DNA from: Rhodospirillaceae bacterium
Lineage (GTDB): Bacteria; Pseudomonadota; Alphaproteobacteria; Rhodospirillales; UBA2165
NCBI GenBank assembly: GCA_018649725.1
Contig: JABIHH010000017.1
Coordinates: forward strand, 40,469-104,468
DNA: 64,000 nt
Direction: 5' to 3'
Part shown: positions 2,684 to 56,154 of the stretch, piece after piece
How the letters are laid out: every line of letters starts with the position of its first letter
Numbering within the stretch: the stretch's first letter is position 1
Notes under the pieces: model-generated
The model's database searches: none
The model's input: only the letters and a program-made list of their open reading frames with translations
What the model was told of the DNA's origin: nothing
Program-made: the position numbers and the translations under genes

Positions 2684-3355
2684 ATGTTGAGCATCATTAT
2701 CCCGACCTTGAACGCTGCCACCAGCCTAGAAGCGACTTTAAGCGCCCTGGAGGCGCCTGGAATAGAGACGCAGGTGATCATCAGCGATGGCGGCTCGAGC
2801 GATGGCACGCAGGGCATCGCCACTCAGAGAGGCGCGCTGCTTATCGAGGCTCCCACAGGACGCGGCGCGCAATTGGCCGAAGGCGCTAAAGCAGCGACCC
2901 GGCCTTGGCTGCTGTTTCTGCATGCCGATACACGGTTAGATGCGGGCTGGCAGAGCGCGGTCGAGACTTTCATTTCCAAGACAGAGGAGGCACCTAAAGC
3001 TGCGGTCTTTAAATTCGCCTTGAATGATCCCAATCCTGCCGCCCGGCGATTGGAAAAGATCGTCGCCTGGCGCTGTCGCTGGTTGGGTTTGCCTTATGGC
3101 GACCAGGGCTTGCTAATCTCAAGGGCCCATTACGATCAAATCGATGGCTTTCGGGAGCTGCCACTTTACGAAGATGTCGATATCATTCGTCGCCTTGGCC
3201 ACCGCAACATCACCTATCTCGAAACCGCGGCCATCACGTCAGCGTCGCGCTACCGTCAAAGCGGCTATATCCTACGGCCTTTGAGAAACGCCGCCTGCTT
3301 GTCGCTCTACTTTGTCGGCCTGCCACCTCATTTGATCGGGCGGCTTTATCAATGA
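2684..3355 (+). CDS. TIGR04283-type GT2 glycosyltransferase
   Basis: LSIIIPTLN, DGGSSDGT, LLFLHADT, PYGDQGL motifs. Confidence 0.85.
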   Translation: MLSIIIPTLNAATSLEATLSALEAPGIETQVIISDGGSSDGTQGIATQRGALLIEAPTGRGAQLAEGAKAATRPWLLFLHADTRLDAGWQSAVETFISKTEEAPKAAVFKFALNDPNPAARRLEKIVAWRCRWLGLPYGDQGLLISRAHYDQIDGFRELPLYEDVDIIRRLGHRNITYLETAAITSASRYRQSGYILRPLRNAACLSLYFVGLPPHLIGRLYQ

Positions 3356-3981
3356 GCCAACTCACCAACCACCTCGTTATCTTCGCCAAAGCCCCCCGCC
3401 TCGGCACGGTGAAAAGCCGCTTGGCGGTTGATCTTGGTGCGGTTGAGGCGTGTCGCCTCTATCGTCAAATGGCCGAGCGAACGATCAGGGTTTTATCCGG
3501 CGATCCCCGCTGGCAGACATATCTCGCACTGACTCCCGACAAGGATGCTTTTTCTGGCTTTAACCTTTCGGCCCCAATGCTCGCCCGCATGGCTCAAGGC
3601 CAAGGTGATTTAGGTGAACGGATGGACCGCGTCTTTAAAGCTCTCGCCCCCGGCCCCGTCGTCATTGTCGGCACTGATTTACCCGACATAAACACCGAGA
3701 AGGTCGCCCGCGCCTTCAAAGCTTTGGGTAATCATGATGCCGTAATCGGCCCGGCCGGAGATGGTGGCTATTGGCTCATTGGTCTGAAGCGGCGGCCTAA
3801 AATTGCCTCGATCTTTGACAATGTCCGTTGGTCGAACACTGAAACTTTGGCCGACACCATTGGAAATATCGAACGAGAAATTCTCGGCGCGCGCATTAAA
3901 AAGCTCGAACAATTAGACGACATCGACGATATTGAAAGCTATCAAAAATGGCAGAAAAAAAATGACCGAAACAATATCTAA
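3352..3981 (+). CDS. TIGR04282-type (DUF2064, CofC-like) transferase
   Basis: IFAKAPRLGTVKSRL, QGQGDLGERM, IGPAGDGGYWLIG; ATGA overlap with upstream gene. Confidence 0.85.
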   Translation: MSQLTNHLVIFAKAPRLGTVKSRLAVDLGAVEACRLYRQMAERTIRVLSGDPRWQTYLALTPDKDAFSGFNLSAPMLARMAQGQGDLGERMDRVFKALAPGPVVIVGTDLPDINTEKVARAFKALGNHDAVIGPAGDGGYWLIGLKRRPKIASIFDNVRWSNTETLADTIGNIEREILGARIKKLEQLDDIDDIESYQKWQKKNDRNNI

Positions 3982-5170
3982 AGACGGCCCGCTCACCGGG
4001 CTCCGCATTATCGATCTTACCCGCATTTTAGCCGGGCCGATCTGCACGATGAATTTGGGTGATATGGGGGCCGAGATCATCAAGATCGAGCAGCCCAGCA
4101 AGGGCGACGACACGCGCAATTGGGGGCCGCCCTTTATCGAAGGTGAAGCGGCCTATTTTTTAGGGGCTAATCGCAGTAAAAAATCCGTCACCCTAGATCT
4201 TAAAAGCGATAAAGGCAGAGACATTCTCAGCGCCCTTATTCAAAAATCAGATGTCGTGATCGATAATTTTAAAACCGGCACGTTGGAAGGCTGGGGATTT
4301 AGTGAAAGCTGGTTTAAGGAAAATGCCCCTCAGGTGATCCAATGCCAAATTACCGGCTATGGCGATAAAGGCCCGAAGGCAGGTCTGCCGGGCTATGATT
4401 TTTTGCTGCAAGCGGAAAGCGGCCTGATGGATATCACCGGCAATATCGACCGCGGCCCGGCCAAATATGGTGTCGCAATTGTTGATGTCTGCACTGGCCA
4501 AAATGCGGCAATGTGTATTTTGGCCGCCCTCAATGCCCGCCACAACACCGGCAAGGGCCAGCGCATAGATATCTCGCTGTTTAATACCAGTCTTTCAATG
4601 TTGGTCAATATCGGCTCGAACTATCTGGTCAACGGCAAGCGACCGGGGCGCTTTGGCAATGCCCATGCCAGCATCGTGCCCTACCGTGATTTTGCCACCA
4701 AAGACACGCCGATTGCCATCGCCGTCGGCAACGACACTCAGTTTGCCCGCATGGCAAAGAGCCTTGGCCACCCGGAATGGGCCGCAGATGACGACTATAA
4801 AACCAATGCACAACGCGTCGCTAATCGAGATCTCCTAGAGCCCATTATCAATGAGGCTCTCGCCGCAAAATCCTGTGATGACTGGATTGAGATATTTGAA
4901 CGCGATGGCATCCCGTGCAGCAAGATTAATGCCGTTGATGAGGCTCTGGAAAGCGAGCAAGCACAGGCACATGACATGGTCGTCGAAGTGGATCACCCAA
5001 CCATCGGGCCGCTTAAAATGCTGGGCGTACCCTATGAATTCTCTGAAACCCCGGCAAAGCCCGGTCAAGCCCCGCCGCTGCTGGGTGCTGACACGGCAGA
5101 CGTGTTAGCCGATGTGCTGGATATGACAACTGACGAGATCGCAGAACTACGGACGAAAGAAATTATTTAA
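3962..5170 (+). CDS. CaiB/BaiF family III CoA-transferase
   Basis: GPLTGLRIIDLTRILAGP, GDDTRNWGPP, NRSKKSVTLDLK, GYDFLLQAESG. Confidence 0.92.
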   Translation: MTETISKDGPLTGLRIIDLTRILAGPICTMNLGDMGAEIIKIEQPSKGDDTRNWGPPFIEGEAAYFLGANRSKKSVTLDLKSDKGRDILSALIQKSDVVIDNFKTGTLEGWGFSESWFKENAPQVIQCQITGYGDKGPKAGLPGYDFLLQAESGLMDITGNIDRGPAKYGVAIVDVCTGQNAAMCILAALNARHNTGKGQRIDISLFNTSLSMLVNIGSNYLVNGKRPGRFGNAHASIVPYRDFATKDTPIAIAVGNDTQFARMAKSLGHPEWAADDDYKTNAQRVANRDLLEPIINEALAAKSCDDWIEIFERDGIPCSKINAVDEALESEQAQAHDMVVEVDHPTIGPLKMLGVPYEFSETPAKPGQAPPLLGADTADVLADVLDMTTDEIAELRTKEII

Positions 5171-47223: not shown

Positions 47224-48453
47224 ATGACTGATACACCTTGGAAACAAGAAGGGTTTTTCACCAGCCCTTGGAACTTCGATCCAGAAGTTACCAAAGATTG
47301 GAAATTTCCAGAAAACATAATCATTCATGACGTGACATTGCGTGATGGTGAGCAGCAAGCTGGTGTTGCGTATAACTATGAAGACAAAATGCGGATCGCC
47401 GAAGGCCTCAACGAGGTTGGCGTTCAGCGTCTTGAAGCCGGTATGCCGGTTGTTTCCAAAGACGACGCCCGCGTGGTTGCCGAATTAGCCAAAAGAACTG
47501 ATTTTGGCCCAAAAGTTTACTCCTTTGCCCGCTGCATGGTTGATGACGTTAAACGCGCTGTCGATTCCGGTGTTAAAGGCGTTATCATGGAAGTGCCGGC
47601 GAGCCCGCACTTGATCGAAAAAGGCTATCGCTGGGAATTGGACCGGGCGATTGATCTTTCTATCGAATCTACTTCTTATGCTCGCGATCAAGGCCTCGAA
47701 GTTGTCTTCTTCCCGATCGATTTCACCCGTTCAGACCTCATTTGGGTTTGCGATTTGATCGAACGCGTTGGTAAAGAAGGCCACATGGATGGTTTGGCTC
47801 TCGTTGACACCATGGGTGCAACCTCGATCCACGCCATGCAGTTCTTCGTCCGTACCATGAAAAACCGCTTCCCGGATATTCCGCTCGAAGCTCACTTCCA
47901 CATGGACTTTGGCATGGGTATCGCCAACACCATCATGGCTCTGTCCGAAGGTGTTGAAGTGATTCAGTCTACTGTTCTGGGTGTCGGTGAACGCGCTGGT
48001 AACGTGCCAATGGAAGAAACGGTTATGGCGCTTAAATGTCTCTACAACATCGACATCGGCATCAAAACTGAGAACTTCAAATCACTTGCCGATATGGTTG
48101 CTGAGATCTCAAATATTCCGATCCTGTCCAACCGCCCAATCGTTGGCGACAATCTGTTTAAGGTTGAGTCCGGCATCATTGCAACATGGTTGCTCAACTG
48201 TGGTTACGAAGATCAAACCGAAGTTGTGCCGTTCCGTCCAAGCATGGTTGGCCAAGCTGAGCCAGAAGCCGTTATGGGTAAAGGTTCCGGCATCGATAAC
48301 TGCAAACATTGGCTGGATAAATTCCAAATTCAAGCTTCTGAAGAGCAAGCCATGGAAGTTCTCATGGCCGTCAAAGAATGGGGCCTTGTCCACAAGCGCC
48401 TGATGAAAGACGAAGAATTCTCTACTCTCGCGAAAGACGTTCTCGAGAACTAA
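47224..48453 (+). CDS. DRE-TIM metallolyase (homocitrate/isopropylmalate synthase-like, no LeuA regulatory domain)
   Basis: DVTLRDGEQ, HFHMDFG (HxH), GERAGN. Confidence 0.85.
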   Translation: MTDTPWKQEGFFTSPWNFDPEVTKDWKFPENIIIHDVTLRDGEQQAGVAYNYEDKMRIAEGLNEVGVQRLEAGMPVVSKDDARVVAELAKRTDFGPKVYSFARCMVDDVKRAVDSGVKGVIMEVPASPHLIEKGYRWELDRAIDLSIESTSYARDQGLEVVFFPIDFTRSDLIWVCDLIERVGKEGHMDGLALVDTMGATSIHAMQFFVRTMKNRFPDIPLEAHFHMDFGMGIANTIMALSEGVEVIQSTVLGVGERAGNVPMEETVMALKCLYNIDIGIKTENFKSLADMVAEISNIPILSNRPIVGDNLFKVESGIIATWLLNCGYEDQTEVVPFRPSMVGQAEPEAVMGKGSGIDNCKHWLDKFQIQASEEQAMEVLMAVKEWGLVHKRLMKDEEFSTLAKDVLEN

Positions 48454-48504: not shown

Positions 48505-48665
48505 GTGGAAAAAATCCAAAATTGGATTTGTCATCCGAAGTTAGTCGCTCTAAGCTGTTAGCAGCGACGAATTGCTCACGATAAATTGATAAAAGCTTGA
48601 ATGAAGCCAGTTTGTTAGTGCGCATTTAAGAAGTATTTTAGATTTAGATAATGGGGAGAATAGTT

Positions 48666-49124
48666 ATGGCTAAAGCAAAGACAATGGATTCAGAGGGCGG
48701 CAATCTTTATGAACGCGCCAATGATATGTTTGTCAAAGTAACCGCCGGTGATACCGATGGTTCATATGAAGTATGCGAGGAACGCTGCCCGGCGGGGTTT
48801 GCTTCCAGGCCGCATATGCACACCGTTAGCCACGAAACTTTCTACGTCTTGAAAGGCAGTGCAACATTTCTGCTGGGCGAAGAAAAACATGACGGCAATG
48901 TTGGTGACCTGATCCACATCCCACCCGGCGTACCTCATCAGATGATTGCCGGCGATGACGGCGTATCTGTACTGATGGTTTATAGCCCGGGCACCACGGA
49001 AGCGATGTTCGCTGATATGACAGCTTTGACACCCGATGAGCGTGCGGATTTTAAAACCGGCGCTGCTGTTGCCGCCAAACACAACACCATTTGGGTTGAG
49101 AATTTTCCAGAAAACCAGGGCTAA
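48666..49124 (+). CDS. Cupin domain protein
   Basis: HMH...ETFYV...IPPGVPH. Confidence 0.85.
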   Translation: MAKAKTMDSEGGNLYERANDMFVKVTAGDTDGSYEVCEERCPAGFASRPHMHTVSHETFYVLKGSATFLLGEEKHDGNVGDLIHIPPGVPHQMIAGDDGVSVLMVYSPGTTEAMFADMTALTPDERADFKTGAAVAAKHNTIWVENFPENQG

Positions 49125-49185: not shown

Positions 49186-49611
49186 ATGCCAATAATCGAA
49201 CCAGGCGGCGGCCGTGTCTTTAAACGTATGAACGACATGACCGTAAAGGTTAAGTCATCCGACACCAATGGCACCTACGAGATGTGCGAAGAAAAATGCC
49301 CTCCAGGGTTTGAGTCTCGCCGTCACATGCATGCCAAGGATTTTGAAACCTTCTACATGGTGTCAGGCTCGGCGCGTTGGGAAGTCGGCGACGAGGTTGT
49401 TGAGGCGGTTAAAGGCCACACCATCCACATTCCACCGAATGTTCCGCATAAAGTAAAATCCGATGAGGGCTGCGAAATGATTTGCATCTTCGGCCCCGGC
49501 CAACAAGAAGGCCAGTTCGAAGAAATGAGCAACCTCACCGAAGAGCAACAACAGGATGACGCACTTAAAAAGTCCATCCTCGCCAAATACAATATGGTGC
49601 CGCTCGAATAG
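49186..49611 (+). CDS. Cupin domain protein (paralog of upstream gene)
   Basis: HMH...ETFYM...IPPNVPH. Confidence 0.85.
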   Translation: MPIIEPGGGRVFKRMNDMTVKVKSSDTNGTYEMCEEKCPPGFESRRHMHAKDFETFYMVSGSARWEVGDEVVEAVKGHTIHIPPNVPHKVKSDEGCEMICIFGPGQQEGQFEEMSNLTEEQQQDDALKKSILAKYNMVPLE

Positions 49612-49677
49612 GAGAGACCAAAATCATTAAAGAAAAAACCCGGTTTCTAGCGATTCCAGGTTTTTTTATCACCTCCT

Positions 49678-49734
49678 GTCACCCTGGACCTGATCCGAGG
49701 TCCAGTCTGGATTCCGGCTCAAGGCCAGAATGAC
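49678..49734. repeat. REP-like palindromic repeats, family A (degenerate)
   Basis: gtcaccctggacctgatccgaggtccag tctggattccggctcaaggccagaatgac. Confidence 0.7.
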
Positions 49735-49856
49735 AATTATTTCTCACACACCATAAGGAACCTTCAAACACGCATATTTGTAGATTTTCTGTTGGTAAAA
49801 TAGCCCGAAGAGAATTAGAAGTAGCTCATGTAAATTTGCCCTTTGAAGGAAGCAAG

Positions 49857-50513
49857 ATGCCAAATATTACGATGCTCGATATTGAAGAGCTTAAAAAAAC
49901 CAAACTCGGGGGTTTCATTAAAAAAAGCCTCCGCCACCGCGCACCCGATCCGGCTTTTCACGCCATGCTCGGCCATAACCCAGAGCTCTCAGCCTCTATG
50001 TATTTTGCCTGGGGGACAGTGTTTAATACCGGCTCCGTTGATCACAAGCTGAAAGAGATCATCCGGGTTCAACTGTCCCGAACTGCCGATTGTAATTATT
50101 GAGGCAATGTCCGTTCTGCTTCGGCGAAGCAGCAGGGATTAACAGAAGAACTTCTCGACGAAGGCATCGACAATTACGAAGCCTCCGATAAATTTACCGC
50201 GGCTGAGAAAATAGCGCTCAAATATTCCGATCTGATGGACACCGATCCGGATCTGATTGACGAAGCGTTTTATAATGAGCTCAAAGAGCATTATTCGACC
50301 GAAGAGATCGTCGAGCTGGGTGCTTTCATTGGCTTTAATATCGGCTACCACACTTGGTTTGGCACACTCGGATTTTATCCGATGTTTACGCCGGATGGCC
50401 GTTTGGTTGACCAGGAAGAATCAGCGCGGATTTATGGTGACAAGCCGATCTCGCACACCAAAGGGGCCATGCAGCGTGCCACCGAAAACAATTCAGATGA
50501 AGCGGCGGAATAG
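49857..50513 (+). CDS. AhpD/carboxymuconolactone decarboxylase-family protein, probable selenoprotein (CxxU, Sec82)
   Basis: ORFs 49836-50102 and 50235-50513 share a frame with one intervening TGA (50100-50102): ...SRTADCNY*GNVRSASAKQQGLTEE...; joined product is 218 aa. Confidence 0.85.
50106..50140 (+). promoter_or_regulatory. Candidate bacterial SECIS element
   Basis: Stem CTGCTTC/GAAGCAG with G-initiated loop GGC starting at +21 after the UGA, plus lower TCC/GGA pairing. Confidence 0.65.
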
Positions 50514-50524
50514 GAAAAAAACAA

Positions 50525-51064
50525 ATGGCGATAATTGACCCGATTCCGGTGGATCAACTCGATCCTGAGAAATTCCAAACCCGCTTGGAACTGGCCCAAG
50601 AATTAATGGTGCCAGACACCTTATTCATTCAGATCATGGCGCATGCGCCGGGCTATGGTGAGGCTTTGTTTGATGCGATGTATCAGTCACACGCCCTCGG
50701 CAATGTCGATCACACCTTAAAGGAAATCATCCGCGTGCGCTTGGCCCGTCTCGCCAAGGATGACTATTTCGGGGCATTGCGATCAAAGAAGGCTCAAGAG
50801 CTCGGCCTGACCGAAGCGCGGATTGAAGCTGGCTGTGGAGATTTCGCCGCCGACAATCAGTTCTCTGATGCGGAAAAATGGGCGCTGAATTACGCCAAGC
50901 TGATGTATACCGAGCCAAAGAAAGTGAACGCTGAATTTTACGATCTCGGTAAGACTTTCTTTAGCGAGCCGGAAATCATGGAACTCGGTGCCTTCATTGC
51001 CTTCCACTATGGCCTGCAAATATTCATGCGCACCTTGAAAGTGCTACCGCTCGACGCAGCTTAG
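50525..51064 (+). CDS. AhpD/CMD-family paralog lacking the redox motif
   Basis: VDHTLKEIIRVRLARLAKDDYFGALRS aligns with VDHKLKEIIRVQLSRTADCNYUGNVRS of the upstream gene. Confidence 0.85.
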   Translation: MAIIDPIPVDQLDPEKFQTRLELAQELMVPDTLFIQIMAHAPGYGEALFDAMYQSHALGNVDHTLKEIIRVRLARLAKDDYFGALRSKKAQELGLTEARIEAGCGDFAADNQFSDAEKWALNYAKLMYTEPKKVNAEFYDLGKTFFSEPEIMELGAFIAFHYGLQIFMRTLKVLPLDAA

Positions 51065-53754
51065 GGGTGGATGATCCCCTGAATGGTTGAGATCAGCTCT
51101 CTAATCTCGAACGGCTTCTGAATAAGAGGATAACCGTGGCCATACTCATCGGAAGACAATAAATTTTCCTGCGCATAGCCGGTCATAAGCAGTACTTTTA
51201 GATCCTTAATCTCGCTCCCGATCTGGCGCGCCAATATGGGGCCGCGGTTTCCATTGGGCAGCATTACGTCGGTCAAAAGCAGGTCTATGTTCGACCGAGT
51301 GGAATTGGCAATATCGATGGCTTTAGCACCATTGCCGCCATCAATGACTGCATAGCCGGAATTCTCCAATGCACTAACCATGATCTCGCGAACTTCCACA
51401 TCGTCTTCAATGACCATCACGGTTTCGCCTTTTCCACTCTGCTTCACTTGCTCTGACTCAACCTTGGAAACGGTGCTGTGCTCTTGTTTTGACATGGGAA
51501 GCAGCAAGCTTACCACTGTACCTTCCCCAACTTCACTTTCAATTTTGACGCCACCACCGGTTTGCTTGATAAAGCCATGAACCATACTGAGGCCCAATCC
51601 ACTCCCTTGGCCAAACTCCTTGGTCGTAAAGAAAGGCTCAAAAACTTTATCCAAAATATTATCTGATATGCCATGACCTGTATCTTTGACGGAGATCGCA
51701 ACATAATTGCCCGGCTCGAGATCATCATAAAGGCCGATAAGGTCATCGGTTTGAACATGATTGAAGGTCGAGATTTGCACCGCTCCGCCACCCGGCATGG
51801 CGTCACGGGCATTGATCACTAAATTGAGGATGGCATTCTCCAATTGATTTGTGTCGACCATGGCGGGCTTTAAATCTGAGATAGTCTGCAAATCAATCGT
51901 GACGGACTCGCCTAATGTGCGTTTCATCATACTCATAATTTCTGAAACGAGCCCGTGAACATCGGTAGAAACGGGTTCAAGATTTTGCTTGCGGGAGAAG
52001 GCGAGTAGACGTTTGGTCAAATCCGCCCCACGCATCGCGGTTTTCTTGGCCCGATCCAGACGCACCTTAAGCTTATCAATATCTGTCGGATCATCCTCCA
52101 TGAGGCTAAGATTACCGTGGAGGGCGGCGAGAATGTTATTGAAATCATGCGCAATACCGCCGGTCATCTGACCTACGGCTTCCATTTTTTGGGTCTGACG
52201 CAGATTCGCTTCATATTGATTTTTAAGCGTAACATCAGACAGATACATCATGGTACTGCCATCGGCGAAGCGTTGAGTCTTCATCTCAAAACTTTGATCT
52301 CCCCGACCAAATTCTCTAGAGCTACTTCGACTGCGAAATTTTTCCAACCGATCCGCAAGCCAGTCCTCATGGGACATCGTGCTCTTTATAGCAGGTCTAA
52401 CCGTAAGACGTCCTTTCGAAAACTCCTCATAGGATACACCGATCTCAATAAGTTCAGACATGATCGAGTTAAATTCAATATACCGACTATTATAGGTTAC
52501 CAATCTTTCATCAGGACCCCATAATGCTAATCCCATTTCCGAATTTTCAAGCGTTTCAAAGAATTGTCGCTCAACACTCTCAGCCCGGTCTTTCAATTCA
52601 ATCTCACCGGTTTCATCTTTCACGATACCGCGATAGCCGACAAAAATCTCCTCATCATCAAACATTGGTTTTGCTGAAATGCGTAAATGAGCGTGTTTAC
52701 TTCGGGCTTGGATTGCATTGTAGGTAATATCATGAACTTCCTGATGTTTCTCAAAATGCTCCTTGAGCGACCTCAATCCGTTCGGCATTTTATTTGGATC
52801 GACAAAATCCCATAATTTTTTTCCGATAAAAACATCGCTTTTCATATTTAGATTTTTGACCGGCGGAGAAAAATAAACAAAATTAAAATTCTCATCAGTT
52901 TCAAAAAAGCGATCGGCACCCAATTCGGCAAAATCTGTCGCCCGTTGTTCTTTTTCCCGAATTGAATTTTGCATTTCCACGCGTTCGGTAACATCTTTCG
53001 ATAAGAACGCAACCCGCGCAGGTTTTCCGTCCTCACCAATTACAGGATAACCAGACACCTCAACATAGCTATCACTCAGGCTGGAGAGAAAATCTAAATT
53101 GATGATGGGTTTACCCGTTTCAATTATCTCCTGAGCTTTCTGTTTTCTGCGTTCCGCCGATTTTGGATTGTCATAATCATAGATATTTTTTCCAACAACC
53201 TGATCAAGCGACACGCCAAAAATACTGCTCAAGGCATCGTTCGCGGCCAGGATGGTGCCGTCATTTTCAATCAAAACGGCACGGTCTTTCAGCGCATCCA
53301 AAAATGCCTGCAGATTAGCCTCGTTTGATTTTACTTCCTGCTGAAGTCGCTTCGTTTCCAATTTTGCTTCAGCATTGGCAATTGTTTTGGCAACAATTCT
53401 AGGTAAGATTTCGGTATAGACATCCTTGCCACTTTTAATAATGTAATCTGAAACACCAAGACCCAAGGCTTGGGCAGCAATCGTTTCACTACCTTGCGCT
53501 GTTATAAACACGATCGGGATATCCGGCGCGCTCGTCAAAAACTTTTTGGCTAACTCAAGCCCATCGCCATCCGGTAAATTGTAATCGAGCAGAATTAAAT
53601 CATAAATCTTTGTTGAGAAATGTTTTGTGCCCTCAGCACAATTGGCAGCGATATCCACCTCGTAGCCATGGATTCCCAAACTCGCGGCACAAAGCTCGGC
53701 CAATTGCAGGCTGTCTTCAACATATAAAATTTTATATGTCCGGTCTAATTTCAC
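51061..53754 (-). CDS. Hybrid sensor histidine kinase (REC-PAS x3-HisKA-HATPase-REC)
   Basis: N-terminal LLDYNLPD; QKMEAVGQMTGGIAHDFNN; FEPFFTTK; GLGLS; C-terminal LLTDVMLP. Confidence 0.93.
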   Translation of the reverse strand: MKLDRTYKILYVEDSLQLAELCAASLGIHGYEVDIAANCAEGTKHFSTKIYDLILLDYNLPDGDGLELAKKFLTSAPDIPIVFITAQGSETIAAQALGLGVSDYIIKSGKDVYTEILPRIVAKTIANAEAKLETKRLQQEVKSNEANLQAFLDALKDRAVLIENDGTILAANDALSSIFGVSLDQVVGKNIYDYDNPKSAERRKQKAQEIIETGKPIINLDFLSSLSDSYVEVSGYPVIGEDGKPARVAFLSKDVTERVEMQNSIREKEQRATDFAELGADRFFETDENFNFVYFSPPVKNLNMKSDVFIGKKLWDFVDPNKMPNGLRSLKEHFEKHQEVHDITYNAIQARSKHAHLRISAKPMFDDEEIFVGYRGIVKDETGEIELKDRAESVERQFFETLENSEMGLALWGPDERLVTYNSRYIEFNSIMSELIEIGVSYEEFSKGRLTVRPAIKSTMSHEDWLADRLEKFRSRSSSREFGRGDQSFEMKTQRFADGSTMMYLSDVTLKNQYEANLRQTQKMEAVGQMTGGIAHDFNNILAALHGNLSLMEDDPTDIDKLKVRLDRAKKTAMRGADLTKRLLAFSRKQNLEPVSTDVHGLVSEIMSMMKRTLGESVTIDLQTISDLKPAMVDTNQLENAILNLVINARDAMPGGGAVQISTFNHVQTDDLIGLYDDLEPGNYVAISVKDTGHGISDNILDKVFEPFFTTKEFGQGSGLGLSMVHGFIKQTGGGVKIESEVGEGTVVSLLLPMSKQEHSTVSKVESEQVKQSGKGETVMVIEDDVEVREIMVSALENSGYAVIDGGNGAKAIDIANSTRSNIDLLLTDVMLPNGNRGPILARQIGSEIKDLKVLLMTGYAQENLLSSDEYGHGYPLIQKPFEIRELISTIQGIIHP

Positions 53755-53922: not shown

Positions 53923-54300
53923 TCAAGCGGGAACAACTTGGGTGACGTTATTCACGATCTGCCATTCATGCTGATCTCGTATAAGGGATAAATCATCATT
54001 AAATATGGCCGCGTCACTTTTAAGCCTAATCTCAGCCCGAGCGGTATCATTTTTTGCGGTAATCCATTCAATTTCGAGTTGCCTCTCAACTCCCCCGATT
54101 TTTTCACTTCGAATGAGCTCAATATATGTTTTCTTATCTAAATTCCTAACCCCATCATTGGTAATGGCAACAACCCGAAAATCATCATGAAAAGCTTTAT
54201 CTAATTTGCCGATATCCCGGTGGTCAGCACCTTTGGCATAACTCTCAATGACTTGTCTGATTAGTTTTAAATTTTCATCTGTCTTCGTTTGATTGATCAT
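53923..54300 (-). CDS. NTF2-like (putative lumazine-binding family) protein
   Basis: VIESY..G...D...L.KAFH.D...WQIVN pattern. Confidence 0.7.
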   Translation of the reverse strand: MINQTKTDENLKLIRQVIESYAKGADHRDIGKLDKAFHDDFRVVAITNDGVRNLDKKTYIELIRSEKIGGVERQLEIEWITAKNDTARAEIRLKSDAAIFNDDLSLIRDQHEWQIVNNVTQVVPA

Positions 54301-54314
54301 TATTCGCTTCCTTT

Positions 54315-54359
54315 TTAAGTTTATTTTTAGTAAGGTTACTTTACTAAAAATAAACTTAA
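54315..54359. promoter_or_regulatory. Perfect 19-bp-arm inverted repeat, probable MarR operator
   Basis: TTAAGTTTATTTTTAGTAA-GGTTACT-TTACTAAAAATAAACTTAA in the divergent promoter. Confidence 0.7.
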
Positions 54360-54402
54360 TCGCAAGTGACATATTAGTCAAGTTCCTTTATTAAGGTTTG
54401 TT

Positions 54403-54825
54403 ATGAATGACGATCTACCCAACCATATTGGCTGGCAGCTGTGGCAGGCGAGCCGGAACTGGACGGAAACATTTGTCTCCGGCCTTAAAAGCAATGGCTA
54501 CCCCGGCATTACTTTTGCACTCGCCAATGTACTTGGCCACCTAAGCCGCAATGAAAATATCCGCCAGACCAAAATTGCCAGCCGCGCCGGGCTGACCAAA
54601 CAAGCTGTCGGCCAGTTTTTGGATGAATTGGAAAAGCTGCAATTGATCGAACGCATTCCAGATCCAAATGACGGACGCGCGCGCTTGGTACGCTACACCG
54701 ATCAGGGAAAGAAGTTTCTAAAAGTTGCCGACCAGATAAAAACGGACATCGAAAATGAATACAGCGCTAAAATGGGGGGGCGCAATTTAACGGATTTAAA
54801 AAATCTGATTGATAAATTGCAGTAA
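54403..54825 (+). CDS. MarR family regulator
   Basis: IASRAGLTKQAVGQFLDELE...RIPDPNDGRARLV..T..G. Confidence 0.9.
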   Translation: MNDDLPNHIGWQLWQASRNWTETFVSGLKSNGYPGITFALANVLGHLSRNENIRQTKIASRAGLTKQAVGQFLDELEKLQLIERIPDPNDGRARLVRYTDQGKKFLKVADQIKTDIENEYSAKMGGRNLTDLKNLIDKLQ

Positions 54826-54915
54826 AATTCGATCCAGTCGTGAGCGATGGCTAATGCCTATTTTTAATGATATATCCGAAAGAGAAATCAGACACCTCAA
54901 GGAATTTTCGCAGAC

Positions 54916-56154
54916 ATGCCTAACCCTAAATTCTCGGAACGACCAGAATATGGCTGGGCAATGGTCGCGATCGCGTTCACGTTAAGCGCAATTTCCTTTG
55001 GTGTTTTATCTTCTGTCGGAGTCTTTTTAAAACCCCTCGCCGCCGAGTTCGGCTGGAGCCGCGGCAGTCTCTCCTTTGGTTATAGTGCGATAACCCTGGC
55101 AACAGCCTTTTCCGGTATTTTGTGGAGTATTATTGCTGATCGCTACGGGACACGCTGGCTCGTCCTCTTTGGCTCCATTGTCATCGGCATACCGCTTCTC
55201 CTGCTCAGCCAGATGGAAAGCATCACCGAGTTTTATTTATATTACTTCCTGTTCGGCGCTCTGGGACACGCCACTGTTACCGGGCCACTTTACGCCAATG
55301 TTGGGCTGTGGTTTACCCGCAATGTCGGCTTAGCGATCGGCTTGACGGTTGCTGGCGGTGCTGTTGGTCAAGGCGTTGTGCCGGTTATTGTTCGCTATTT
55401 GATCAATCATTATGACTGGCAGACGGCGTACGCAACACTTGGTGTTGCCTATATGATTTTGGCCATCCCCGTAGCAACTCTAGTGCGCGATTCACCCCGG
55501 CGAAAGACGGCTCATGCGGAAACGGCACCCAGCCAAAGAGATGGCACGCCTTTTCCCCTGCCCCCCAAAGTCGTCGTCGCCTGGATAGCATCAGCCGTAG
55601 TATTTTGCTGTGTCGCGATGGCCGTTCCAATCGTTCATCTCGTCTCGCTGCTTACTGATAAAGGCATGACGCCAGATGGCGCGGTAACCGTATTTTTGGC
55701 ATTGATGGTGGCGGGCGCCTTTGGCCGCATACTTGGTGGCAAGTTGGCCGATCATATTGGCTCGCTCCAAAGCTACGCCTGCATGTCGGTCCTACAGACA
55801 TCAGTAATTTTTCTGTTTCCCCATGTTCAGAACACGGTTCTGATTTATATCTTAGCGATGGTATTTGGCCTCGCTTTTTCAGGTGTTATGGCATCCTTCC
55901 TAGTCGCTGTTCGTATGATGGTCCCGGCCCGCGTGCTGGCCAGGAGCATGGCTATCGTTTCGCTGTTCGGTTGGATCGGCATGGGAATGGGCGGATGGCA
56001 AGGAGGCCTCGTCTTTGATCTCACCGGCGATTACGTCTGGTCCTTCGCCAATGGCAGTATTGCCGGCGTTATTAACCTGATCATCCTCGCATTATTCTAC
56101 CTAAACATCCGCCGGGCCAGTGGACATCAACGCGCCCAACTGGCAAGCACTTAG
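54916..56154 (+). CDS. MFS transporter
   Basis: About 12 TM helices, ADRYGTR and GKLADHIG motif A. Confidence 0.9.
   Translation: MPNPKFSERPEYGWAMVAIAFTLSAISFGVLSSVGVFLKPLAAEFGWSRGSLSFGYSAITLATAFSGILWSIIADRYGTRWLVLFGSIVIGIPLLLLSQMESITEFYLYYFLFGALGHATVTGPLYANVGLWFTRNVGLAIGLTVAGGAVGQGVVPVIVRYLINHYDWQTAYATLGVAYMILAIPVATLVRDSPRRKTAHAETAPSQRDGTPFPLPPKVVVAWIASAVVFCCVAMAVPIVHLVSLLTDKGMTPDGAVTVFLALMVAGAFGRILGGKLADHIGSLQSYACMSVLQTSVIFLFPHVQNTVLIYILAMVFGLAFSGVMASFLVAVRMMVPARVLARSMAIVSLFGWIGMGMGGWQGGLVFDLTGDYVWSFANGSIAGVINLIILALFYLNIRRASGHQRAQLAST

Follow-up and report, generated by a model that had tools for sequence, protein, structure and literature searches.

Results

The gene pair

We analysed a stretch of 64,000 nucleotides (nt) from a Rhodospirillaceae bacterium (contig JABIHH010000017.1, labelled C4 here; the whole stretch is called the window, and all positions are its coordinates), in which two adjacent genes of the plus strand encode a selenoprotein of the AhpD/CMD fold and a paralog that lacks its redox residues. 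The first, gene A, occupies positions 49857–50513 and comprises 218 codons, including that of the selenocysteine (Sec) U82, with the stop codon TAG at 50511–50513. Its redox motif C79-N80-Y81-U82 is encoded at 50091–50102, codon 82 being the in-frame TGA at 50100–50102. A spacer of 11 nt (50514–50524) separates the TAG of A from the ATG of gene B, and an AGGA (50512–50515) stands 9 nt ahead of this ATG. Gene B (50525–51064) encodes a Cys/Sec-less paralog of A with 179 amino acids (aa). Both products align over residues 1–176 with 36% identity (E 2e-36), far above chance, and since this alignment is gapless, the C-N-Y-U of A and the D79-D80-Y81-F82 of B (50759–50770) share the same four columns. 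An earlier, sequence-only reading of this DNA had described a paralog 11 bp downstream in which DDYF replaces CNYU; its coordinates, spacer and aligned columns are confirmed, and the peptides that it quoted are present.

Scored against the Pfam family CMD (PF02627), A passes the cut-off of 23 with 33.9 bits and B stays under it with 18.3 bits; the tie of B to this family consists in its similarity to A and in its fold. The top NCBIfam match of both proteins is NF053654, "YciW-related (seleno)protein" (A 62.4 and B 49.6 bits, cut-off of 310 not reached), and TIGR01926 (peroxidase-related enzyme) likewise remains below its cut-off of 81.8 (A 26.8, B 15.1 bits), as does TIGR00778 (AhpD core domain; 17.7 bits, cut-off 27.8). 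Because A falls below the cut-offs of TIGR01926 and NF053654, it is covered by no curated NCBIfam model. The PcaC equivalog model (4-carboxymuconolactone decarboxylase) was not listed for A or B among NCBIfam matches with E ≤0.1. The protein collection contains 887 relatives of B, most of them nameless or with generic names in their sources.

Selenocysteine decoding of gene A

Downstream of the TGA, the fold of the sequence and an alignment of 41 orthologous stretches from several phyla delineate a hairpin at 50109–50139 (plus strand) that resembles a selenocysteine insertion sequence (SECIS). Its upper stem of 7 bp (50116–50122 paired with 50126–50132) encloses the loop GGC (50123–50125) and begins 16 nt past the first base of the UGA, corresponding to alignment columns 17–23 and 27–33, while a weaker lower stem is formed by 50109–50112 and 50136–50139. 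The block GCTTCGGCGAAG is invariant across the 41 sequences, synonymous sites included. Furthermore, the stem pair 18–32 shows compensatory covariation: 28 sequences have U-A, 13 have C-G, and no sequence leaves it unpaired. No Rfam family matches positions 49600–51200 (E ≤1). The genome also encodes the decoding machinery: selA and selB adjoin on contig C14, both above curated cut-offs, a selD gene that itself carries a TGA and thus encodes a Sec-type SelD lies on contig C86 (71372–72301, above its curated cut-off), and aragorn detects a tRNA-SeC gene.

The context of the TGA is kept throughout, as all 20 related loci and all 79 genome loci have C-x-Y-U-GNVRSAS. Gene A with its TGA is present in 22 of 41 related genomes, and among 80 metagenome loci of A the TGA was parsed in 79, the 80th (L204) having an in-frame stop at the same site. 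Public gene calls mostly split A at this codon: in a survey of its 120 best database relatives, 93 are C-terminal fragments that start past the TGA, 17 are fusions, 6 are full-length with W at the TGA and 4 are chimeric or frameshift-like. None of these 120 relatives has Cys at the Sec position.

The selenoproteome of this genome is large. In addition to the Sec-type SelD, it comprises a second AhpD-like open reading frame (ORF) in which A-C-S-Y is followed by TGA (C45:12204–12587), and six AhpC-TSA matches with in-frame TGA, which are peroxiredoxin-family ORFs (on contigs C86, C39 twice, C1, C43 and C11). Related genomes contain divergent pairs of more distant AhpD-like ORFs with one TGA each, about 1–2 kb apart (e.g. 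G019:C140:11938–13191, G014:C15:69795–71399, G021:C22:1640–3971 and G008:C21:11033–12637), a recurring arrangement of two selenoproteins that is distinct from the A–B pair.

Linkage and natural fusion of A and B

When 41 related genomes were examined, B was found directly downstream in 21 of the 22 that have A; the 22nd yielded a partial match to A (residues 1–131) and no row for B. In all 20 related loci that were fetched, A precedes B on the same strand. Linkage was then assessed from both sides. Starting from B, with one genome per species and the best 80 of 296 stretches encoding a B relative, A with its TGA lies directly upstream in each of the 79 loci that have room upstream, and in the 80th a contig edge cuts A so that its end is visible. 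By their record titles, these loci stem from Rhodospirillales, Nitrospinota, Tectomicrobia, SAR324, Hyphomicrobiales, Acidimicrobiia, Burkholderiales, Chthoniobacterales and Defluviicoccus. Starting from A, with database records of A as queries against metagenome contigs, 80 loci were returned; B follows in 74 of them (in full in 68, truncated where the contig ends in 6), and 5 contigs stop within 315 nt of A, too short to judge the presence of B. The pair is hence conserved by gene neighbourhood, and its members were not found independently except on one metagenome contig, L192, which is considered in the Discussion. The spacer, measured in 75 loci, has a median of 9 nt (range −10 to 107); it is ≤0 in 8 loci, 1–30 nt in 62 and >30 nt in 5.

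Among 301 genomes sampled evenly from the same class, 294 gave no match at E ≤1e-20, which, for a sample, is no proof of absence; the pair was present in just two further genomes and a solitary third paralog in four, one of them G280. One locus (L140, G173:C5:86000–93500, at about 2905–4788 on the minus strand) contains a triple A–B–A′, in which two Sec-containing A copies (H-C-S-Y-U) stand on either side of one B (D-S-Y-S). The near-identical C-terminal halves of these A copies suggest a recent partial duplication or gene conversion.

The 17 fusions among the best matches of A are single ORFs that join the post-TGA part of A, a linker and a complete B domain, the linker being 50–100 residues long, of low complexity and rich in Pro, Ala and Ser. 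At two loci the full layout A-TGA-A-linker-B was followed in one frame at the DNA level, from the start of A across the TGA at codon 82 to the end of B: L111 (SAR324) with 426 codons, and L143 with 422 codons, identical to record P0132 (Betaproteobacteria according to the source). Since proteins that are fused in some organisms tend to act together (Rosetta-stone evidence), these natural fusions argue that A and B are jointly functional. A third candidate, L154, was rejected, as the frame of A continues and B lies in another frame. The B domain of L143 has the motif D-P-C-F, with Cys at the otherwise invariant Tyr81. Two database proteins appear chimeric, namely P0176, whose N-terminus resembles that of A while the remaining body is that of B with D-S-Y-F, and P0238, with a B body and the C-terminal tail of A; both could be products of recombination between the paralogs or assembly chimeras.

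Conservation, selection and descent of gene B

The altered motif of B is itself conserved. D-x-Y-F is kept in 19 of 20 related loci (the other having D-G-Y-S) and in 119 of 121 database proteins, and among 72 readable metagenome copies it occurs in 67, next to D-x-Y-S in 3 and A-x-Y-F in 2. Cys is present at neither redox column of B in any of the 20 loci, 121 proteins and 72 copies. Furthermore, B shares E67, H63, Y81, R86 and S87 with A; as B has no SECIS, the retention of R86 and S87 in it must serve the protein itself. An additional residue of B, Cys104, occurs in 107 of the 121 database proteins and in 43 of the 72 metagenome genes.

Ratios of non-synonymous to synonymous change (dN/dS) were estimated by NG86; of 2850 pairs, the 1021 whose dS lay between 0.1 and 1.5 were used. 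The medians of 0.22 for A and 0.30 for B indicate purifying selection on both genes. Within the genus the ratio is about 0.05 for both, from 17 and 9 measurable pairs of 55, synonymous sites being mostly saturated. Relaxed selection on the DDYF copy, which would have spoken against a functional partner, was thus not seen. The dN values of A and of B are correlated with r = 0.93 (1530 non-independent pairs).

In a tree of 94 rows (quick IQ-TREE search, midpoint root for drawing only), B forms one clade beside A, with a support of 96 in the Shimodaira–Hasegawa-like approximate likelihood-ratio test (SH-aLRT), and A falls on one side of a branch with support 73. Subclades of A and B match each other. 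Solitary paralogs with C-x-x-C (L133–L139) make up a separate clade on a long branch (SH-aLRT 100); they are 31–38% identical to A, carry the motif K-C-E-F-C-G-N-Q-R-S and have no partner gene among the matches seen. Among Cys-type relatives, this solitary C-E-F-C paralog is closest to the pair. Some B copies retain an A-like C-terminal tail. The pattern fits a single duplication of an A-like gene, after which one copy lost its two redox residues and the pair was co-inherited or co-transferred.

Fold and relation to known systems

The model of B, folded with an alignment of database proteins, is confident (predicted local distance difference test score, pLDDT, 90.4; predicted template modelling score, pTM, 0.87). 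It matches Bmp8 (6ohi, 6ohj) with Z 16.5 and a root-mean-square deviation of 2.9 over 171 residues (Foldseek E 3.1e-5, TM 0.79/0.76), and the AhpD-core structures 2prr, 2oyo, 6e8l and 6k40 are within one Z unit of this value. Because Bmp8 is tied with these peroxidase-related AhpD-core proteins, the fold match does not single out dehalogenation. By sequence, the closest solved relative of A is also Bmp8 (6ohi, E 5.5e-7; residues 37–168 of A against 43–173), followed by AhpD-like proteins of the PA0269 type.

Bmp8 is a thiol-dependent tetrabromopyrrole debrominase of marine origin, whose mechanism resembles that of the deiodinase selenoenzyme. It resembles A and B in fold and in length class (about 190 aa), and its C-M-Y-C aligns with the C-N-Y-U of A. 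However, its identity to the pair is about 16–20%, it uses Cys instead of Sec and, unlike A, it has no paired dead paralog in the entries searched. Neither a bmp-type cluster nor halogenase, acyl carrier protein (ACP) or P450 neighbours were found beside A and B in the window and in the neighbourhoods of the relatives.

With AhpD of M. tuberculosis (1knc, 1gu9) and AhpD-core proteins (2prr, 6k40 and PA0269, 2o4d/7xw1), A and B share an all-helical fold. As in AhpD, a Glu lies eleven residues ahead of the first Cys of A, and a helix begins at the C-x-x-C-type centre (E67, C79, U82). In contrast to AhpD, A has Arg86 four residues past the second redox position, where AhpD has its His; titles of PDB entries among the matches name the AhpD mutants H137F and H132Q. 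Another difference from AhpD is that the contig of the window has no AhpC-TSA match. To our knowledge, AhpD and AhpD-core proteins do not occur as hetero-pairs with a Cys-less paralog.

Another counterpart of A is the class of CMD/AhpD-like C-x-x-U selenoproteins. A belongs to the same fold family, likewise has C-x-x-U with Sec as the second redox residue and a SECIS hairpin behind the UGA, and is marine as well, as far as the available text of three reports describes the class (PMC1088965, PMC2398784, PMC13188914); A is likened to the class by this published description. In that text the proteins are named "CMD domain-containing protein" (PF02627) or "AhpD-like protein" (COG2128/TIGR01926). 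Gene A has the features of the class, that is, a UGA at the second position, the hairpin behind it, SelA, SelB, SelD and tRNA-Sec in the genome and a PF02627 match.

The layout of the pair, for its part, has precedents within single chains. According to the available part of PMC11429811, Sestrins combine two AhpD-like domains, one redox-active and the other with D-D-Y-D-Y at the cysteine site, and bacterial fused AhpD-like proteins with one Cys-less domain exist as well. The window pair likewise has a redox-competent unit next to a Cys-less paralogous one, with D-x-Y-F at the lost site to compare with the D-D-Y-D-Y described there, and the fused proteins L111 and L143 have the same two-domain layout in one chain. 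Unlike in Sestrins, the units in the window are two genes and the active one uses Sec. Since only D79 and Y81 of the Sestrin-like motif are conserved in B, the likeness may be convergence. In Sestrin2, the best match of the B model is the redox N-terminal domain SESN-A (Z 12.6, further matches 9.2–9.4); as only SESN-A aligned, a specific link of B to the C-terminal domain is unsupported.

Neighbourhood and expression

Upstream of A lie an SDR gene, an HMGL-like (DRE-TIM) gene (47224–48453) and two cupin genes (48651–49124 and 49186–49611). Past B, a gene for a hybrid PAS histidine kinase/response regulator on the minus strand (51061–53754) is convergent with B, and its end overlaps the stop codon of B by 4 bp. 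In relatives of the genus an MFS transporter gene directly follows B where the window has this kinase, and lumazine-binding, MarR and MFS genes are ordered differently from the window (region including 53923–56154).

The synteny of SDR, HMGL and cupin genes extends over 13 of 20 stretches and is limited to the genus and a few other genera. Clustering of ORFs over 80 loci revealed no third gene conserved with the pair; neighbours are lineage-specific, with SDR-HMGL-cupin-MFS genes in 10–13 loci, a class-III aminotransferase in 26 and an FAA hydrolase in 18, and elsewhere an ammonium transporter, creatininase, alpha/beta hydrolases, CoA-transferase, other transporters or ferritin. AhpC-TSA matches are absent from the contig of the window, all 17 in the genome lying on other contigs. 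The sequence-only reading had noted a DRE-TIM gene, two cupins and the absence of ahpC nearby, which is correct, and had taken them to indicate a catabolic rather than a peroxide-defence role. As no third gene is conserved, that proposal is weak; a small-molecule catabolic setting is possible, and the substrate may be either an acceptor of the hydroperoxide or peroxiredoxin type or an electrophilic organic compound of small size (e.g. with a carbon–halogen bond, as for Bmp8).

The DNA of the pair occurs in seawater metagenomes. Contigs from metatranscriptomes cover the TGA and the hairpin without differences in 4 runs of 4 studies, and those of 2 runs span the A–B junction. A scan for promoters and terminators gave counts that were not above those of shuffled sequences.

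Discussion

We consider it probable that A and B combine as subunits into one enzyme; the two AhpD/CMD-fold proteins would make an asymmetric pair and would have arisen by a single duplication. The two-way linkage, the selection on both genes and the natural fusions point in this direction; that the proteins bind each other, how the catalytic cycle proceeds and what B contributes are inferred. In the mechanism that we propose, A would be the sole redox centre of the pair, with U82 as the attacking nucleophile, C79 resolving it to a selenenylsulfide that a cellular thiol system would re-reduce, and E67 and R86 flanking the active site. B, in which Asp replaces Cys and Phe replaces Sec, cannot undergo redox cycling; most likely its role is to complete the dimer and to shape the substrate site or control access to it. 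Both proteins would be made from one bicistronic message, on which B starts a few nt past the stop codon of A, and in some lineages they are parts of one polypeptide, held together by the linker of 50–100 residues.

Several observations weigh against this interpretation. Linkage and fusion would also suit two enzymes of one pathway. The non-synonymous change of B is about 1.6 times faster than that of A, and B, with its invariant Asp and with E67, H63 and R86 still in place, may be chemically active itself instead of serving only as a scaffold. Cys104, which we considered as a resolving residue contributed by B, was rejected in this role because only 43 of 72 metagenome B genes have it. Metagenome contig L192 carries A (556–1164) and 1488 nt of downstream sequence without B; instead, a different ORF of 365 aa follows (1385–2482), with repeated H-G-H motifs by eye, which we take to resemble 6-pyruvoyl-tetrahydropterin synthase. 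The tree stems from a quick search, and the support for placing A on a single side is just 73. Finally, contigs from RNA libraries may hold carry-over DNA and are no proof of a single transcript. Of the earlier proposal of an active Sec subunit with a non-catalytic partner, the pairing is borne out by linkage, selection and fusions, while "non-catalytic" is unsupported, given that B keeps E67, H63, Y81, R86 and an invariant Asp. B is thus redox-dead, but it is not necessarily inert.

The same residues (D79, E67, H63, Y81 and R86), all under purifying selection, would suit a scheme in which A and B act in one pathway as distinct enzymes without a stable complex between them, A performing a selenol redox step and B a non-redox step, e.g. 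as a decarboxylase, isomerase or tautomerase-like enzyme, with linkage and fusion reflecting metabolic coupling only. The CMD family includes non-redox enzymes, and the long flexible linkers of the fusions are typical of tethered, separable domains. However, across lineages the pair has no further pathway gene as a conserved neighbour; the spacers are very short or overlapping, the gene order is invariant, and the solved relatives are deposited with several chains per entry. These solved relatives are probably homo-oligomers, which would make a paralogous partner the simplest reading. We regard two separate enzymes as unlikely. B might instead be a regulatory or protective partner outside the catalytic unit, with the task, for instance, of guarding or sensing the selenol in A or of linking A to another protein. 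The faster evolution of B would agree with such a role, and Sestrins set a precedent, with their acidic D-D-Y motif at the Cys site and a non-redox C-terminal domain engaged in signalling, as described in the available part of PMC11429811. Against it stand the lack of a conserved third partner gene, the best Sestrin2 match of B, which is the redox domain SESN-A and not SESN-C, and the poor conservation of Cys104, so that we judge this role improbable. That B is a decaying duplicate, or that translation really ends at the TGA and A is broken or split, is scarcely credible: gene callers do cut A at the TGA (93 of 120 relatives are fragments) and B scores under the Pfam cut-off, but the TGA and its flanking frame are kept in every ortholog seen, a covarying hairpin follows, the Sec machinery is encoded in the genome, A and B alike show purifying selection, and B is intact except in one case, which is cut or masked.

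The two-subunit enzyme could also be given a much more specific form, which we deem quite unlikely. Here, the pair would be an obligate heterodimeric selenoenzyme in which a Sec-free B reduces the cost to one UGA recoding per dimer, with its translation coupled to the completion of A. Rather than on peroxides, the enzyme would act on an organic electrophile, by a reductive dehalogenation of marine organohalogens of the Bmp8/deiodinase type, the Asp/Phe pocket of B binding the substrate.

The C-x-x-U class of AhpD/CMD selenoproteins is not new; it was described in 2005 (Zhang, Fomenko and Gladyshev; PMC1088965) and appears again in the 2008 GOS survey (PMC2398784) and in a 2026 review (PMC13188914). 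The available text of the survey counts AhpD/CMD-like C-x-x-U proteins among the more abundant selenoprotein families of the ocean. The present analysis adds the D-x-Y-F signature of the Cys-less partner, the fusions, the linkage counts from both sides, the selection estimates and the tree; the available text of the searched literature on these selenoproteins, including the three reports, makes no mention of an obligate Cys-less partner or of A–B fusions. The statement in the sequence-only reading that no characterised system has this arrangement holds insofar as none was found in that literature, and has to be qualified in that asymmetric AhpD-like double domains are in print, as the available part of PMC11429811 indicates.

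We know of no biochemical characterisation of an AhpD/CMD-like C-x-x-U protein. If these proteins work only as A:B pairs, A expressed alone would fail and co-expression with B would be needed, for which the natural fusions provide a ready single-chain construct. The pair would then clearly exemplify a selenoenzyme in which an active subunit is combined with a redox-dead paralog, which is relevant to the ways in which cells restrict the expense of inserting Sec, and it would parallel the active and inactive AhpD-like halves of the eukaryotic Sestrins.

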